NCBI GenBank assembly: GCA_964518805.1
Contig: CAZFKF010000001.1
Span: 1 to 26,863, forward strand
Source of the DNA: an uncultured Planctomycetaceae bacterium
Lineage (GTDB): Bacteria; Planctomycetota; Planctomycetia; Pirellulales; Thermoguttaceae
Direction: 5' to 3'
Length of the DNA stretch: 26,863 bases
The translations under genes were made by a program, and so were the position numbers. The notes beneath the pieces were generated by a model. It had not been told where the DNA came from. It searched no databases and saw nothing but the letters and a program-made list of their open reading frames with translations. Positions 8,913 to 22,762 of this stretch are shown here, one piece after another; positions within the stretch are counted from its first letter, which is position 1; the number at the start of each line of letters is the position of its first letter.

Positions 8913-10079
8913 TCAGAATGCCGACAGCGGCCGTTTCTTTTCCAGAAACACGCCGCAGAACACGTCTCCGGGCAGCAATTCGATGGGTCCCGGCTTGTAT
9001 CCGCCCGCCTCTTGGCCCGTTTCGATGACGAACCCCGGGTTCAAATACCCATCGCGATTCTGATCGGCCACTTCTTTGACGCTCCCGTCGGCCATTAAGA
9101 GGTTGCACGACTTGCCATGAACGGCGCTCCACGCGCGCGTGTCCTGAAACCACGCGGGGCTACCCGTGCCATCCCGTTCGTACCGCACCTGACTTGTCAT
9201 GTCGATCGACGTCGAAGTGGCTTTCAAGAAGGCAATCGACTGGTTGGCGCTGTCGTACGTCGCGGGGCCTCGGTTGTAGGAGTTGCTCAGCGTGACCCCT
9301 GCCTGGATATACACCCTATTCGCGTCCTGGATGGTCGTCGACAGGACGGCGCTCTCCGCGCTAGGCAGACCACCGTCGCCTAGAAGCGGGATGTTCGAGC
9401 TCGGGACCACGCCGTTGTCCACGGTACGCGTGGTCAGCGGCCCCGTCGTGCCATACAGACCGACCGTGTTTCTTTCGGACTGGGGCGATTCCGCGTTCGG
9501 GAAGTACCACGTGTCGTTGGCCGCCGCTTTCAGCCGCAGCCCGCCTCGCACGAGAAACCAACTGGCCGCGTAGTTGGTGTTGTAACCCTTGGCCAGGAAA
9601 TTCCTGGCCAGATATGCGGCACGGTCTCCGGCGGTGCTGCCTCCAAATGTTCCGCTGCACGCGCCGGCAGTCAAGCGGTCCGCGGTTGCTCCGTCTAAGG
9701 GCGGCGTCGCTGTCGTGTCACCGGCAGTCAGCATAACGCCGAAGGCCTGGTTTCCCGACAAGTCGCCCGCTGGGTTCAAGAGGTCGCCGGGCCGGCAGGC
9801 TCCCATATTCACCAAGTCTGCCACCCAGCCCCACGTATCGAGACAACCGTCGCGTTGGTAATCGACCGCCCCGGAACAGAATCGGCCTTGGGGGTCTCTG
9901 GCAGCGAACTGCATCAATCCTAAACCCAACTGTCGGAGATTGGCCTTATCTTGACTATTGCGGGCCGACCCCCTCGCCTGGAGAATCGCCGGCAGCGCGA
10001 TGGCTGCCAAGAGCGCGATGATGGCAATCACCACGAGCATTTCGACGAGCGTAAAACCGAGCCGCGCCTTGTTGCACAT
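8913..10079 (-). CDS. DUF1559 family prepilin-like protein (pilin A), 388 aa
   Basis: Class III signal RLG|[23 protein letters not shown]; C-terminal H-X9-DG motif [12 protein letters not shown]; AGGAGGA ribosome-binding site. Confidence 0.93.
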
Positions 10080-16966: not shown

Positions 16967-17011
16967 TTGTTCTCACCGCGCCCTTCACGAGTGCCGGGCG
17001 ATCCCTCGCCC

Positions 17012-17057
17012 GACAAAGCAAATCACAGGCGGGAGAGCCCGCTGGCCCTCCCGCCTG
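17012..17057 (-). terminator. Probable intrinsic terminator or mRNA-stabilising hairpin after pilin B
   Basis: Perfect 10 bp inverted repeat CAGGCGGGAG (17026-35) / CTCCCGCCTG (17048-57), followed on the minus strand by TGATTTGCTTTGTC. Confidence 0.6.
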
Positions 17058-17128
17058 CTTCAAGCCTTTACTGCTGCAATATCCGGACTACCGCGGATCG
17101 CTCGACCGCGAGATCGTCCTTTCGGACT

Positions 17129-18406
17129 TCATTCGTAGTTGACCAGCTTCTTCTGCCAGACGTTCTTGTAGAACATTCCGCTGAAGACCTGAGTGCGCGG
17201 CAAGTCCTCTTCGGGGCCGGTGAAGCCAACGCGGCTGGCGAGCGTCCCCGTCGTCGCATTGACCACGTACTGCACCGCGCCAGCGCCCGTGACCGGGAAG
17301 CCGGGGTTCAGCAGGCCGTCGCCGTTGGCGTCGCCGAACTGCTGGACCGAGCCGTCAGCCATCAGGATGTTGCACGACCCGTTGTGGTAGCACATCCAGT
17401 CGCGGGTGTCCTGGAGGCAGAGGCTGCCGTAGTTCGCACTCTGGGCTTCCTCGAAAACCTGCCCGGAATAGCTCGTCGTACCGGCGGTGTTGAGGTTCGC
17501 AACGACGCCGACGGTTGCATTGTTCGGGCTGACGGTATCGATCCCCGAGGCGCCGCCCCAGGTGGCCGGACCGTCGTTGAATGACTCGACCAACCGATCG
17601 CCAGCGCCGAGGAAAGGCTTGCCCTTGTAGGTGAGGGCCGCAAGCAGGACCGCCTCGTTCGGGTCGCCTGGGGTGCCGTCGCCCAGCAGCGGGATCATGT
17701 TGCTGGGGATGGACGACTTGTCGATGTCCGACCGGCGAATCGGGCCATCGCCGCAGTCCTTGGCCTTGTAATTGGTGTAGGCAACTCCCTGCCGCCCCAT
17801 CGATTCGGTGTGGATCTCATAGCCCGTGATCTTGCCGTTCGCAGCCTGTACGACGTTCGTGACCACGGTCCTCGGCTGCCCGCGGACGAAGAAGTTGCTC
17901 GCCACGTAGTTGGACGAGTAGCCCTTGTCGATGATGTACTTGCTGACCGCGTCGGCCGTAGCCGTCCCGCTCGCGTTAACTCCGATCATGTCCGTCTGCG
18001 AGCACGCCCCGGCCGCTTGATCCTTGACGTCGGCGACTTCGGCACCGGTGACCGAGCTGCCGCCCAACAGGTCGTTGAGCTTCTCCATCCCCTTGGCCGG
18101 GTTGGAGGGGCAGAGCATGTCGACCGGACGGCAATAGCCAGAATTCACCAGGTCGGCAACCCAGCCGTAGCTGTCGACGCAGCCGTCGCGGCGGTTGTCG
18201 TAGGCGCCGGTGCAATAGCGGGTGTAGGGGTCGTGATCCGCGTGGATCATAAACCCGATGCCGAACTGGCGCAGATTGCTCTGGCACTGGGCCGAACGGG
18301 CCGCTTCGCGGGCGCGGCTCAAGGCCGGCATCAACATGGCCACGAGGATGGCGATGATCACGATCACCACCAGCATCTCGACAAGAGTAAAACCTTTACG
18401 CTTCAT
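17129..18406 (-). CDS. DUF1559 family prepilin-like protein (pilin B, candidate major subunit), 425 aa
   Basis: MKRKG|[23 protein letters not shown]; [26 protein letters not shown]; GGAGA ribosome-binding site. The major-subunit role is inferred from the long leader and downstream hairpin. Confidence 0.94.
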
Positions 18407-18414
18407 TGTCTTTC

Positions 18415-18535
18415 TCCAGGTAAACGGAAACTGACGCTCATCCCTGCAACTCTACTTTGCTCACTCCAACTCACGCGACGTTCCGAGCGGCCACACCTCC
18501 TTTCCTCCTGCGATTGATTCCTTGTCTGACCTTCC
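18415..18535 (-). promoter_or_regulatory. GGA-rich 5' leader of pilin B; candidate CsrA/RsmA-binding array
   Basis: Nine GGA triplets counted in 121 nt on the coding strand, including ACAAGGAAT, GCAGGAGGA and CAGGGATG. Confidence 0.4.
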
Positions 18536-18753
18536 TTCTATTTCGCACCCCGCTGCCCCTGGCGAACACTTCGTCGTGTTGTCTCGTACTGAGATCCGCG
18601 GGCAATCGGTGCCCCACCGAACGGTGTCGCCGGCGAGAAAACTGGGTGTCACAGACTTGTGGACTAACCGCCGTGTTTTCAAATCCGTAACGCCGACTAT
18701 TATCCACGCCGATGTAAGCGCTTGATGCGTTGGCGATCAGAGTTCCGTCAGCT

Positions 18754-18777
18754 TTTCGAGATTTTGAGATTTCGCGA
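18754..18777. repeat. Three tandem imperfect 8-bp repeats
   Basis: TTTCGAGA TTTTGAGA TTTCGCGA on the plus strand. Confidence 0.55.
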
Positions 18778-18802
18778 GGGCGACTCGCATGGTGCGTTCG
18801 AA

Positions 18803-18819
18803 GGCATCGGTCGTTCCAC
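18803..18819 (-). promoter_or_regulatory. Possible sigma54 (-24/-12) promoter for pilin B
   Basis: Minus strand GTGGAACGACCGATGCC keeps GG-N10-GC, with mismatches to the TGGCACG-N4-TTGCW consensus. Confidence 0.25.
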
Positions 18820-19104
18820 ACGGATATCTTGCACGCATTCTCGCCGTGTCGGCTGGCAGACCGCGTGATTCCGTAGTGCGAGCGCGAGCCCTTGGGCGAT
18901 TCAACGGGCTGAAGTCCGCACCACAAACCTGCCGCCCGATGCAACCCCGCATCCGACCCCCGGCGCTGGCCATGCTCTACGCCGCCCGATCTTCATTTCC
19001 GTGGGGACGCCCCGGCGTTCCATTTCACGGGCTTGAAGTCTTCGATTATCGCGACGCGTGTTAAGAATTGATGGGCGGTCGGGCAGAATTCGGTCTTCTT
19101 GGCG

Positions 19105-19491
19105 CTAGAAATCGCCTTCCGGTGCGTTAGAAGCGGTGGGCATGGCAGACGAGGGGGAATGCGCCGCGCTGGGGCGCTCGAGATTCTTCGCGTATTTCAT
19201 GACTCGCGTACCATGGGCCAAGACGTGTCCGTTGGGCTCGATGACAACCTCGATTTGTCTCTCGCCGTCGATCCACATCCACCTGGCGTCCAGGGATGGA
19301 CCTGCGATACGACATTCTGTCGGATCCCCAAGCAACTCCACCAGATCCTCCCTCTTCATGTCGGAGCGGATCTTGTCGAAATTACGCTGAGTCACCTTGC
19401 TGGCGCCCTCCTCCTCCGGGGCGCAACCGCCGACCAACACGACCAGCATGGCGAGGCAACCGAGATACTGACGAAATCCAATGGAAACCAT
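19105..19491 (-). CDS. Small lipoprotein, SmpA/OmlA (BamE)-like or DUF3862-like, 128 aa
   Basis: Signal peptide ending in lipobox VGG|C; VTQRNFDKIRSDMKREDLVELLGDP resembles the 'I..GM...EV..LLG.P' motif. Confidence 0.7.
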   Translation of the reverse strand: MVSIGFRQYLGCLAMLVVLVGGCAPEEEGASKVTQRNFDKIRSDMKREDLVELLGDPTECRIAGPSLDARWMWIDGERQIEVVIEPNGHVLAHGTRVMKYAKNLERPSAAHSPSSAMPTASNAPEGDF

Positions 19492-19608
19492 GGGCAGACT
19501 TTCCTGGCGGAGGGAAACGGATTACGACCTTGGCGGAGACGGCTGTGCGAGAGGGCTCAGCGGCCCCTCCCCTTTCCACGCCTTGCTCTGCTTCACGGAT
19601 TCTCCGGC

Positions 19609-20769
19609 CTATGGATTCGGGATCGCTGGCGTGGGCGGTTTGGCTTTCAAATCCCAGCAACTGAAGAACTCGTCGGGCGGTAGCTCGACGATGTCGCTGG
19701 TGAAGCCGCCGTTGCCGCCGGGGAAACCGTTGTTCAGCAGCCCGTCCTTGTTGGTGTCGATCACGGTGCGCACGCCACCGTCGGCGAACAGCACATTGCA
19801 CCCCCCGCGATGCACCGGACCGAATTCCCGATAGTCTTGAAGCGTCTGGTTGTTCCAGATGGCCCACCAGCCGTCCGCGCCCGTGCGCGGCGTTCCCGCG
19901 GCCGGCGACGGCGCCACCAGGGTCGTCTTCAGCACCGGGCCTCGCGTCGTCGGTCGCACGGCGGGCGCATCTCGAAGCGACGCGATGTCCGCGTTCAACG
20001 AACCGCTCGGCGACCCGCACCCCATGAGCGGTACAAAACAACTGGACGACTTGGCAACGTCTGCCTGGGCCCGCGGCAACGGCCCCTGCGTACTGTGGAT
20101 CGACAACAACGAGGCTTCGCATCCCGCCTTGTCCGTCTTGAGTTGGCCCGAGTCGTTCAGCACCACAGCCGAACGGACCAGGAGCCAACTCGGCGTGTAA
20201 TTCGTATTGAAGTGCTTGTCGTAGATCAGTTTCTGCACGACGAAGACGCGTCCGGCACTGCCCGGTGCCATGTCCGCGATGGTGCGGCACGGGTTGGTGA
20301 TCGGGCTCCCGTCGGGCGCCGTCTCAGAGGGGCTGCCGCGGTAGTCGATGCAATCGCCGGGGGTCGGCGCTGGCACGGCGAAGTTCACCAGATCGTTGAA
20401 TGTCTCGCTGATCTGCGCGGGATTGGACGGGCACAGCATTTTTCCCAGGGCATAGCCTTGGGCGACCAAATCCGCCACCCAGCCTTTCTCGGTGACGCAA
20501 CCGTCGCGAACCCAGTCGAACGCCCCCGAGCACAACGTCCCGTGCGTTGTGGCGTGCGATGAAAGCCCGACGCCGATCTGCTTCAGGTTCATCTGGCACG
20601 CGCTGGAACGCGCAGTCTCCCGAGCGGAGTTGAGCGCCGGCATCAGGATCGCCGCCAGCAACGTCAAGATCGTGATGACGACCAGCACCTCGATCAGCGT
20701 CATCGCTCTCCGCACGGCAAGCCTCGCCGCGCCGGGAGCCCTCATGTCGATGCGATGCAATCCAACCAT
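19609..20769 (-). CDS. DUF1559 family prepilin-like protein (pilin C), 386 aa
   Basis: RRA|MTLIEVLVVITILTLLAAILMPA; ACQMNLKQ, LCPSNP, HRGGCNVLFADG; GAGGAG lies 6 nt before the ATG at 20769. Confidence 0.92.
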   Translation of the reverse strand: MVGLHRIDMRAPGAARLAVRRAMTLIEVLVVITILTLLAAILMPALNSARETARSSACQMNLKQIGVGLSSHATTHGTLCSGAFDWVRDGCVTEKGWVADLVAQGYALGKMLCPSNPAQISETFNDLVNFAVPAPTPGDCIDYRGSPSETAPDGSPITNPCRTIADMAPGSAGRVFVVQKLIYDKHFNTNYTPSWLLVRSAVVLNDSGQLKTDKAGCEASLLSIHSTQGPLPRAQADVAKSSSCFVPLMGCGSPSGSLNADIASLRDAPAVRPTTRGPVLKTTLVAPSPAAGTPRTGADGWWAIWNNQTLQDYREFGPVHRGGCNVLFADGGVRTVIDTNKDGLLNNGFPGGNGGFTSDIVELPPDEFFSCWDLKAKPPTPAIPNP

Positions 20770-21368
20770 CGCGTTCTCCTCAATACTGCGTACGACGCGC
20801 GCGGGCGCGCCACCGTTGCTGACGGTACCTCATTGGCACCCTCTATGTCATTATGCAAGCGCACGTTATTGATTCGTGTGCAGCGTGTTGTTTCTCGGTT
20901 AGTGTTTCATGAATCTCCACGGTCTCCGGCAGAATGCGTGGATCAGCAAGAACTGAAAAAGATCCGCCTCGGGGAGTTGGAGGTCCAAGGCGACTCCCGG
21001 CCAACGACGAGCCGGCCTGTTTGCTTCGGCCGCGCGAGCGCGATGCGGCGGGTAGTGTGGCTGCTATGGGGGATTATTGCCATTGAGATGAGCTTTCGAT
21101 GGGCATCGTGTTAGATGTCCAATCACGAGACTCGCGGTTGCCGGAATTGTTAAGTGGATATGTCGTGCGAGTTAATTGTTGGCGATTTCGCCCCAACGAG
21201 CGGTTTATCGGCTTGCCGGTTCGTAGGGCGGCCGGTCTAATCGGGGCAGGACGGAGGCGTCGCGCCAAGGGCGAGCACTGCCGCGCTAAGCCGAGTGAGT
21301 TGCATCTTCATCGGCCGCGTTCGGTCGCAGGATGAAGACACTTAACGAGGAGTCGGGAGTCGCAGACC

Positions 21369-22762
21369 ATGCTTCAGCAAGCTGCGCGAGGAAGAAGCCC
21401 ACGGGCAGTCATACCGCCCTCGCGAAAGCCCGCCCGAAAGTCGAGGCGTTGGTGGGGCCTTGCGATTCCGGTGGTGCTGCTTCTCGCCGCGGGTGGCTAT
21501 TTCCTCATGCCCAGCGGTCGCGGGAGCCCCGCGGCGGCGAAAGCCGAGCCGAAATCCGCCCCGAAACCGGCGGCCGCGAAGACGCCCGATCCGCCGCCGA
21601 CTCCGCGAGCCGATGCGAACGCTTCCGCCATGGGCGCCAACCCCGCGGACAAAGCCGGCGACCCTCCGGCAGGGGCCGTCGCGCTCTCGAAGAGTGGCGA
21701 TCCGCCCCAACCGCCGCCCCAGCCTCCGGCCGTCGAGATCGGCATTGCCTACGGCACAGAGAAACGAACCTGGCTGGAATGGGCCGTCCAGGAGTTCGGA
21801 ACCACGGAAGAGGGAAAGCGAATTCGGATCAAGCTGATCCCCATGGGCTCGCTGGAAGGCGCGCACGCGATCGTCGATGGAGACAAGACGATTCACGTCT
21901 GGTCGCCCGCCAGCAGCCTCTACCGAGAGACCTTCGTGCGCGACTGGAAGGCGCGGCAACAGGGGACCAACCCCATCGCCAGAGCGGAGAACCTTGCCTT
22001 GACTCCCATGGCGATTGTGATGTGGCAGGAACGTTACGACGCCTTCACGGCCAGGTGTCCCGAGGTCTCGCTGCGGACGATCAAGTTTGCCTTGGAGGCG
22101 AAGACGGGTTGGGAGCACATCGCCGGAAGGACGAGTGGGGGCATTTCAAGTTCGGGCACACCCACCCGAACCAATCGAACTCGGGCCTGATGACTCTGAT
22201 CCTGCTGGCCTACGAATTTGAAGAGAAGACGGCCGACTTGACGGTCGGCGAGGTGATGTCGCGGGACTTCCAGAAGCGTTTGGCCGGCTTTGAGCGGGCG
22301 GTGACCGGGCTGTCGAACTCGACGGGCAACATGATGAAGGAGATGGTCGCCAAGGGGCCGACCGGCTACGACGCGCTGATGGTCTACGAGTCCGTGGCCA
22401 TCGACTTTCTCAAAATTGCCCAAGGGCGGTGGGGGCAGTTGCATGTCGTCTATCCCAAATTCAACATGTGGAACGAAAATCCGTACTACATCCTCAACGT
22501 GCCTTGGTCGACGATCGAGCACCAGAAGGCGGCGGAGGCGTTCCTCAAGTTCTTGATGAGCGATCCCGCCCAAGCGCGGGCCTTGGACCATGGTTTCCGG
22601 CCGGGGAACCCTAAGGTGCCCATCCGGTTTCCCCAGAGCCCCTTCGTTCGCTACGAACCCAATGGACTGAGTGTCGAGTTGCCCGCCGTCTGCCAGGTGC
22701 CGTCACCCGAAGTCATCGAGAATCTCCTCTATAGCTGGGTCCGCAACGCCGTGCCGCGCTGA
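21369..22762 (+). pseudogene. Membrane-anchored extracellular solute-binding protein (family usually linked to vWA domains), frameshifted near 22128
   Basis: The 21369 frame encodes TM, Pro linker and VEIGIAYGTEKRTWLEW up to GWEHIAG. The continuation DEWGHFKFGHTHPNQSNSG to the stop at 22762 is in another frame. One added base restores a ~464 aa protein colinear with the downstream paralog. Confidence 0.82.

Follow-up and report, generated by a model that had tools for sequence, protein, structure and literature searches.

The DUF1559 gene and its surroundings

The window, by which we mean the whole stretch of 26,863 nt analysed here, carries on its minus strand a coding sequence of 425 aa (17129..18406) that a preliminary description of the locus had named 'pilin B'. 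Its product is an H-X9-DG protein with a prepilin-type N-terminal methylation motif: a Pfam search returned PF07963 (N_methyl, 1.3e-8), then PF07596 (DUF1559/SBP_bac_10, 1.2e-15), and the named relatives are DUF1559 proteins from Pirellulales, Thermoguttaceae and Rubripirellula. By its domain content the protein belongs to the large DUF1559 family of planctomycetes. It carries the N_methyl prepilin motif (PF07963), but a pilin role is not demonstrated for it. DUF1559 paralogues number 68 in Planctopirus, where two are essential, and 74 in Rhodopirellula (PMC10632474, PMC2754498). Two paralogues lie in the window itself, at 20769..19609 and 10079..8913.

A 698-nt gap without a credible coding sequence separates the gene at 18406..17129 from its 5' neighbourhood. 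On the other side, ~70 nt past the stop codon, a strong terminator-like hairpin occupies 17025..17058 on the minus strand, its stem made of 15 bp, 11 of them G-C, and its tail rich in T; the terminator scan gave 2 matches, against 0.2 expected from shuffles. The position of this hairpin suggests a monocistronic unit, and the DUF1559 gene looks, from these features, like a transcription unit of its own. Its codon-usage score, at the 80th percentile, is unremarkable and gives no independent sign of very high expression. An Rfam search of 17000..21500 (E <= 1) found nothing relevant, only a chance sobemovirus match. The true Shine-Dalgarno (SD) sequence, GGAG, lies at 18414..18417 (minus strand), 7 nt 5' of the ATG at 18406, and most orthologues have a GGAG in the same place.

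Further upstream on the minus strand, a conserved block of 29 nt, CATCAAGCGCTTACATCGGCGTGGATAAT (18699..18727), includes a -10-like GATAAT. The block is unique in this genome, aligns across the leaders of the orthologous loci L009, L010, L019 (two copies), L020, L034 and L031, and recurs in the metagenomic homologue L055. Wherever it is found, it stands upstream of the orphan SD described below, at a gap of ~17 to ~190 nt, an arrangement that would place the orphan SD within the transcript. We regard CATCAAGCGCTTACATCGGCGTGGATAAT as a candidate promoter or operator of the DUF1559 gene; a sigma-70 consensus scan of the gene's strand over 18300..19200 yielded no promoter and did not pick up the block. 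If CATCAAGCGCTTACATCGGCGTGGATAAT is the promoter, the 5' UTR would be ~290 nt long and the orphan SD would sit ~190 nt into it. A sigma-54-like site at 18803..18819 was rejected as a conserved feature: the region is absent from L010 and is coding in L019, L020 and L034.

Inside the putative 5' UTR, a small hairpin, GGGGC-ACCGATT-GCCC (18600..18615, minus strand), aligns in the nearest relatives (L009, L010 and L011) and is present in the MFE fold; it may be a 5' structural element. Its preservation in L010 and L011 comes with a U-A to U-G change in a neighbouring stem. The last 134 nt before the start codon (18407..18540, minus strand) form a purine-rich, weakly structured stretch with 66% A+G (G 49, C 21 of 134) that harbours nine GGA motifs, and within it lies the orphan SD.

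An orphan Shine-Dalgarno island

The preliminary description had pointed to an SD-like sequence about 90 nt upstream of the true start. We find there the island GGAAAGGAGGTG (18494..18505, minus strand), an orphan upstream SD separated by 87 nt, counted from its last base, from the ATG at 18406. The 9-mer AAGGAGGTG at 18502..18494 (minus strand) extends to the full GGAAAGGAGGTG at 18505..18494. Our anti-SD reference was the 16S rRNA 3' end GGATCACCTCCTTTCTAAGG, located within the last 50 bases of contig C542, at the edge of this 4.5-kb contig; the genome's 16S 3' end there reads GGATCACCTCCTTTCT. Pairing between GGAAAGGAGGTG and the 16S 3' tail CACCUCCUUUCU is possible over the full 12 nt, with 11 Watson-Crick pairs and one G-U pair, and it is the two preceding G residues that bring the pairing in the window to all 12 bases.

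The same description held that no suitably spaced start codon accompanies the SD-like sequence, which is correct: none usable follows GGAAAGGAGGTG. After GGAGG the window reads T-GTG-GCC-GCT-CGG, and the only start-like codons nearby are a GTG inside the motif and a GTG 1 nt past GGAGG.

The 184-nt leader stretch with the GGA motifs has a predicted MFE fold less stable than those of its shuffled versions (z = +1.37), in which the island falls in a large loop. With a fold this weak, the island should be accessible. Pairing of the island with the pyrimidine stretch UUUCCGUUUACC that precedes the true SD was considered by eye and discarded, as it amounts to a bulged 7-bp match that is not conserved.

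The island's sequence is rare in the genome. The 10-mer AAAGGAGGTG has only 6 copies in 7.08 Mb: this leader, the 16S gene, a coding match in mraZ, two copies of an intergenic repeat and a contig edge. The shorter AAGGAGGTG occurs 72 times on both strands together, of which 24 lie between genes and just 2 come to within 15 nt of a called start; these counts are similar to those of scrambled controls, and AAGGAGGTG was rejected both as a general leader element and as a common SD. In an intergenic repeat of at least three copies (contigs C93, C115 and C795), the sequence CGCGAAAGCGCGAAAGGGCGAAAACGCGA is followed directly by AAGGAGGTG.

Conservation of the island among orthologues

We looked for the protein in 61 relatives and then in 251 genomes of the family, and obtained 42 loci at which the start of the orthologue could be recognised; here the gene often follows another DUF1559 gene, in the same tandem order. 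Orthologues of 'pilin B' are found in 33 of the 251 family genomes, and beyond the family elsewhere in the order. A separate search for contigs with related loci returned only two irrelevant Abditibacteriota matches.

Of the 42 orthologous leaders, 18 contain AAAGGAGGTG, where 0.04 are expected from the single match in the remaining 308 kb of the same loci, both strands counted. Every copy has the sense orientation; the antisense strand has none. When partial versions such as AAAGGAGGA, AAAGGAGGGG and AAGGGAGGTG are included, the island is found in 27 leaders; about 15 of the 42 carry no recognisable motif. It lies between 72 and 295 nt ahead of the start, at distances that do not differ by multiples of three, and its flanks cannot be aligned between genera. 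When the leaders are anchored on GGAGG, information is high only at GAAAGGAGGTG (G-A-A-A-[GGAGG]-T-G), with the flanks at background. The genome's own 16S 3' tail is exactly complementary to this 11-mer. Several relatives extend the match in the same register: four of them to 12 nt, one to 13 nt, and L041 to 16 nt (AGAAAGGAGGTGATCC). The closest homologue, the metagenomic L055 (65% identity), keeps GAAAGGAGGTG at -106, in a comparison of metagenomic leaders that excludes P0003 and P0004, two of the closest homologues. Judged by these alignments, conservation of the island cannot be chance, and what is conserved across many genera appears to be the match to the 16S tail, not the nine GGA motifs.

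In L014, L025, L026, L039, L045 and L046, the orphan SD is located ~30-130 nt past the stop codon of another DUF1559 gene. There it is intercistronic and not promoter-proximal, and sometimes lies just past a short stem-loop.

The absence of a usable start codon bears on the possibility that the island is the real ribosome-binding site (RBS) of a tiny upstream ORF, or of a start-stop element, which would begin at the motif-end GTG or at a non-canonical codon and regulate the downstream gene. This GTG is conserved as part of the motif (85%), which is equally explained by its being the complement of 16S CAC. In the window, GGAGGA stands 6 nt before the motif GTG, which opens a frame of 11 codons; the frame is 1 codon in L020, which reads GTG-TAG, and in L010 it continues into the main coding sequence in another frame. 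Ribosome binding at uORFs is known to protect mRNAs from RNase E (PMC9943677). Against such an element, no ATG, GTG or TTG is found 4-12 nt past GGAGG in any motif-bearing leader, and the indels that follow the motif have lengths not divisible by three. Because neither the peptide nor its length is conserved and the indels do not come in threes, a conserved leader peptide is unlikely, and we consider the tiny upstream ORF as a whole highly improbable.

The island might also act other than through binding of 30S subunits to the sense RNA, as a DNA operator, as part of a promoter, or as the template of an antisense RNA with the anti-SD mimic CACCUCCUUUCC. Sequence alone cannot separate a function of the sense RNA from one at the level of DNA or of an antisense transcript, and a constant orientation relative to the gene is expected in all three cases. 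For an operator, however, the exact register of 11-16 nt with the 16S tail would be a coincidence. Unlike part of a promoter, the island varies in its distance to the start and in its distance to CATCAAGCGCTTACATCGGCGTGGATAAT (~17 to ~190 nt), and the scan of 18300..19200 detected no promoter-like site for an antisense transcript near the motif. We judge action by any of these routes very unlikely.

The GGA motifs and CsrA

The feature that first drew attention to this leader was its number of GGA motifs. The nine claimed are exactly what we count on the minus strand between 18540 and 18407, at offsets 5, 19, 32, 35, 40, 56, 73, 97 and 123 of the 134-nt leader. The accompanying expectation of 2-3 is right for the composition of the genome, in which strand windows of 134 nt contain a mean of 2.39 GGA and nine is attained in 0.11% of them, but it is too low for the purine-rich composition of the leader itself. 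Local composition predicts 5.3 motifs from mononucleotide frequencies (P = 0.037 for nine) and 4.6 from dinucleotide shuffles (P = 0.004). Nine or more GGA occur in 11 of 3089 called leaders (0.36%), where the Poisson tail for a mean of 2.84 predicts ~0.29%; these leader statistics are approximate because the genes were called with a crude home-made codon log-odds caller. The array is unusual for a single leader, yet no more so than a 7-Mb genome yields by chance.

The excess is not shared by the family. The leaders of 15 other DUF1559 paralogues in the genome have a mean of 3.6 GGA, and a general enrichment across DUF1559 leaders was rejected on this basis. Across the 42 orthologous leaders, the final 134 nt contain between 1 and 9 GGA, in most cases 2-5. 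Nine are counted in L019 and L036 and eight in L026; the closest homologue, L055, has four. Between the island and the true SD, with the SD-like island removed, 79 GGA are observed against 74.9 expected from local composition, and the 60 nt upstream of the island contain 46 against 39.5, with a mild purine excess (58%). Enrichment of GGA in orthologous leaders, whose lack the preliminary description had itself named as a refuting outcome, is largely absent outside the island. The comparison indicates that the GGA count is not the conserved feature. On the reading favoured below, most of the GGA motifs other than the island would have arisen in this lineage as a side effect of the purine-rich, accessible context around it.

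These counts weigh on the proposal, made in the preliminary description, that the leader is under CsrA-type control or serves as a CsrA sponge. One or more of the nine CsrA paralogues would bind GGA sites that include the island and the true SD, repressing or activating translation, or the leader would titrate CsrA. The protein is at hand: the statement that planctomycetes have CsrA homologues holds for this genome, with nine PF02599 matches above the Pfam cut-off. Leaders regulated by CsrA/RsmA include those of the flagellin gene hag in Bacillus subtilis and of glgC and pgaA in E. coli. The leader studied here resembles them in having several GGA, one of which overlaps the SD, and some relatives are GGA-rich too. 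Two of its sites, ACAAGGA near 18525 and CAGGGAUG near 18445, resemble the E. coli SELEX core for CsrA.

The comparison nevertheless lends CsrA control no support. Neither of the two E. coli-like sites is kept in L010, L019 or L020, the multiplicity of GGA is not maintained in orthologous leaders, and other DUF1559 leaders of the genome are not enriched. The number of leaders with at least nine GGA genome-wide matches the Poisson tail, and the predicted weak fold presents no GGA in a short hairpin loop. Moreover, the conserved letters exceed CsrA recognition, since the AAA before and the GGTG(ATCC) after the GGA track the 16S sequence and are not needed for CsrA binding. CsrA could bind the island because any SD contains GGA, but such binding would not explain the conserved letters that are needed only for pairing with 16S rRNA. 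Overall, we consider CsrA control of this leader unlikely.

The CsrA-domain genes (PF02599) are located on contigs C842, C1090, C501, C584, C218, C336, C758, C44 and C1281. Some of the matches lie in open frames of at least 200 aa, which suggests fused or extended forms.

A proposed upstream docking site for the 30S subunit

The reading that we favour, with a probability of roughly 0.55, is that a single orphan upstream SD (uSD), GGAAAGGAGGTG, docks the 30S subunit within a long, purine-rich and poorly structured leader. Pairing of 11-12 nt with the 16S 3' tail would permit stable docking of the 30S subunit without initiator tRNA or a start codon. The docked subunit could shield the downstream mRNA from 5'-end-dependent decay, which here would mean scanning by RNase E/G; it could also make 30S subunits more plentiful near the true RBS, the weaker GGAG 7 nt ahead of the ATG. 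One or both of these effects may operate. The presence of the motif in the mRNA, its binding of 30S subunits, and the direction and size of the effect on expression are inferred; the direction is taken from precedent.

The opposite direction is conceivable. A very long SD-antiSD duplex could trap the 30S subunit and lower translation instead of raising it. The island would then be a decoy that damps translation of the DUF1559 gene, and output would be tied to free ribosomes inversely or non-linearly. The conservation evidence is the same for a decoy as for docking, and duplexes of 11-16 nt far exceed the SD lengths that are optimal for initiation. In the precedents that have been tested, STAB-SD, the focA uSD and skp, an upstream SD raises expression (PMC12970973; bioRxiv 10.1101/2025.04.04.647229), which argues against a decoy and leads us to regard it as quite unlikely.

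If docking stabilises the mRNA, the nuclease countered would not be the one known from Bacillus. RNase J (TIGR00649) has no match in this genome, and none of 26 relatives exceeds the cut-off, whereas a gene for RNase E/G is present. The Bacillus mechanism therefore cannot apply as such, and without RNase J the protective route has to differ from that of Bacillus. Ribosome binding in the 5' UTR impedes RNase E scanning from the 5' end, the more so the stronger the complementarity to 16S rRNA (PMC9943677).

More tentatively, and with considerable doubt, we suggest that Pirellulales possess an RNase J-independent docking element. It would consist of an anti-SD complement of 11-16 nt located 70-300 nt upstream of one DUF1559 gene, would make the lifetime or the translation of that gene's mRNA depend on how many free 30S subunits are available, and would mark a special orthologue. 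Were this so, the element could act, for example, by blocking RNase E scanning, and the 'pilin B' orthologue would be a functionally special member of the phylum's largest paralogous family.

Orphan SDs in 5' UTRs are experimentally documented in few organisms, as STAB-SD in Bacillus and, recently, as hundreds of uRBS sites in E. coli, and comparative evidence for selection on such sites has been thin. Here an island of 11 nt is held in exact register with the 16S tail across many genera while its surroundings drift, in a lineage that lacks RNase J and belongs to a phylum where work on post-transcriptional control has hardly begun. The locus offers a clean, testable system in which to ask whether bacteria in general use upstream docking of 30S subunits, and against which nuclease. 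The island also sets one orthologue group apart from the many other DUF1559 paralogues as specially regulated, which could help to find the function of these proteins.

Relation to known systems

Orphan SDs of this kind are already known as STAB-SD or uSD elements. What distinguishes the island is its length, its deep and strand-specific conservation and its variable position, and also its restriction to one DUF1559 orthologue group and its occurrence in a lineage that lacks RNase J.

The STAB-SD of cry3Aa in B. thuringiensis, GAAAGGAGG at ~-125, has no start codon and protects the processed mRNA by holding the 30S subunit (PMC12970973, citing Agaisse & Lereclus 1994, 1996). A strong SD likewise blocks RNase J1 in hbs (PMC5737220), and related 5' polypurine stabilisers are found in Bacillus (PMC2358910). 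The island shares with these elements a perfect SD complement (GAAAGGAGG in Bacillus, GAAAGGAGGTG here) ~100-130 nt upstream in a long 5' UTR (a putative one here), which serves no start codon and is accompanied by a separate true RBS (PMC12970973, PMC2358910). The complement lies far from the start, at 87 nt here and at 72-295 nt in the orthologues, and in all motif-bearing leaders it serves no start codon and is followed by no conserved frame. The Bacillus element differs in acting at the processed 5' end by blocking RNase J1; stalling of that enzyme has no counterpart here, where RNase J is absent and RNase E/G is present. A further contrast is the greater length of the 16S match (11-16 nt), which in this case precedes a DUF1559 gene in a planctomycete host.

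The uSD at -213 of focA, identified in E. coli by 30S-seq, binds the 30S subunit without tRNAi, and its mutation lowers expression ~10-fold (bioRxiv 10.1101/2025.04.04.647229). Like the E. coli uRBS/uSD sites, the island is a strong, conserved SD far upstream that lacks a functional start codon and is separate from a weaker true SD, and its variable distance of ~70-300 nt falls within the reported range. A uSD is to lie at least 35 nt upstream of the start; the island does so by 87 nt, and CATCAAGCGCTTACATCGGCGTGGATAAT would put it in the 5' UTR. Conservation among orthologues, also expected of a uSD, is evident from the sense-only copies described above (18/42 vs 0.04 expected) and from L055. 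Two differences stand out. Binding of the 30S subunit and the effect on expression are demonstrated in E. coli and inferred here, and the E. coli motifs measure 5-7 nt, compared with 11-16 nt here, conserved across many genera.

Standby sites, such as those of the MS2 coat gene and the tisB +42 mRNA, are single-stranded landing places for the 30S subunit ~100 nt upstream of the RBS (PMC6690012, PMC7708055). The island resembles them in offering an upstream landing stretch, in a leader that is predicted to be weakly structured. Standby sites, however, use protein S1 and not an SD match, and they serve an RBS that is stably sequestered. Here the site is defined by its SD match and the true RBS is no more paired than in controls: its predicted pairing probability is 0.82 in the window, and the mean is 0.66 in the orthologues, compared with 0.63 in 300 control genes (Mann-Whitney P = 0.12). 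These values leave a strict standby requirement unsupported, and a classical standby site was rejected because the true RBS is not specially sequestered. The standby reading of the preliminary description pointed the right way in proposing a ribosome site without a start codon, but the sequestered RBS that it implies is not seen.

In about half of the orthologous leaders (L009-L053), a T-rich (T)GGTTTC is located 24-48 nt before the start. This motif, a little 5' of the true SD, could be an enhancer of the S1 type or a partner of the SD.
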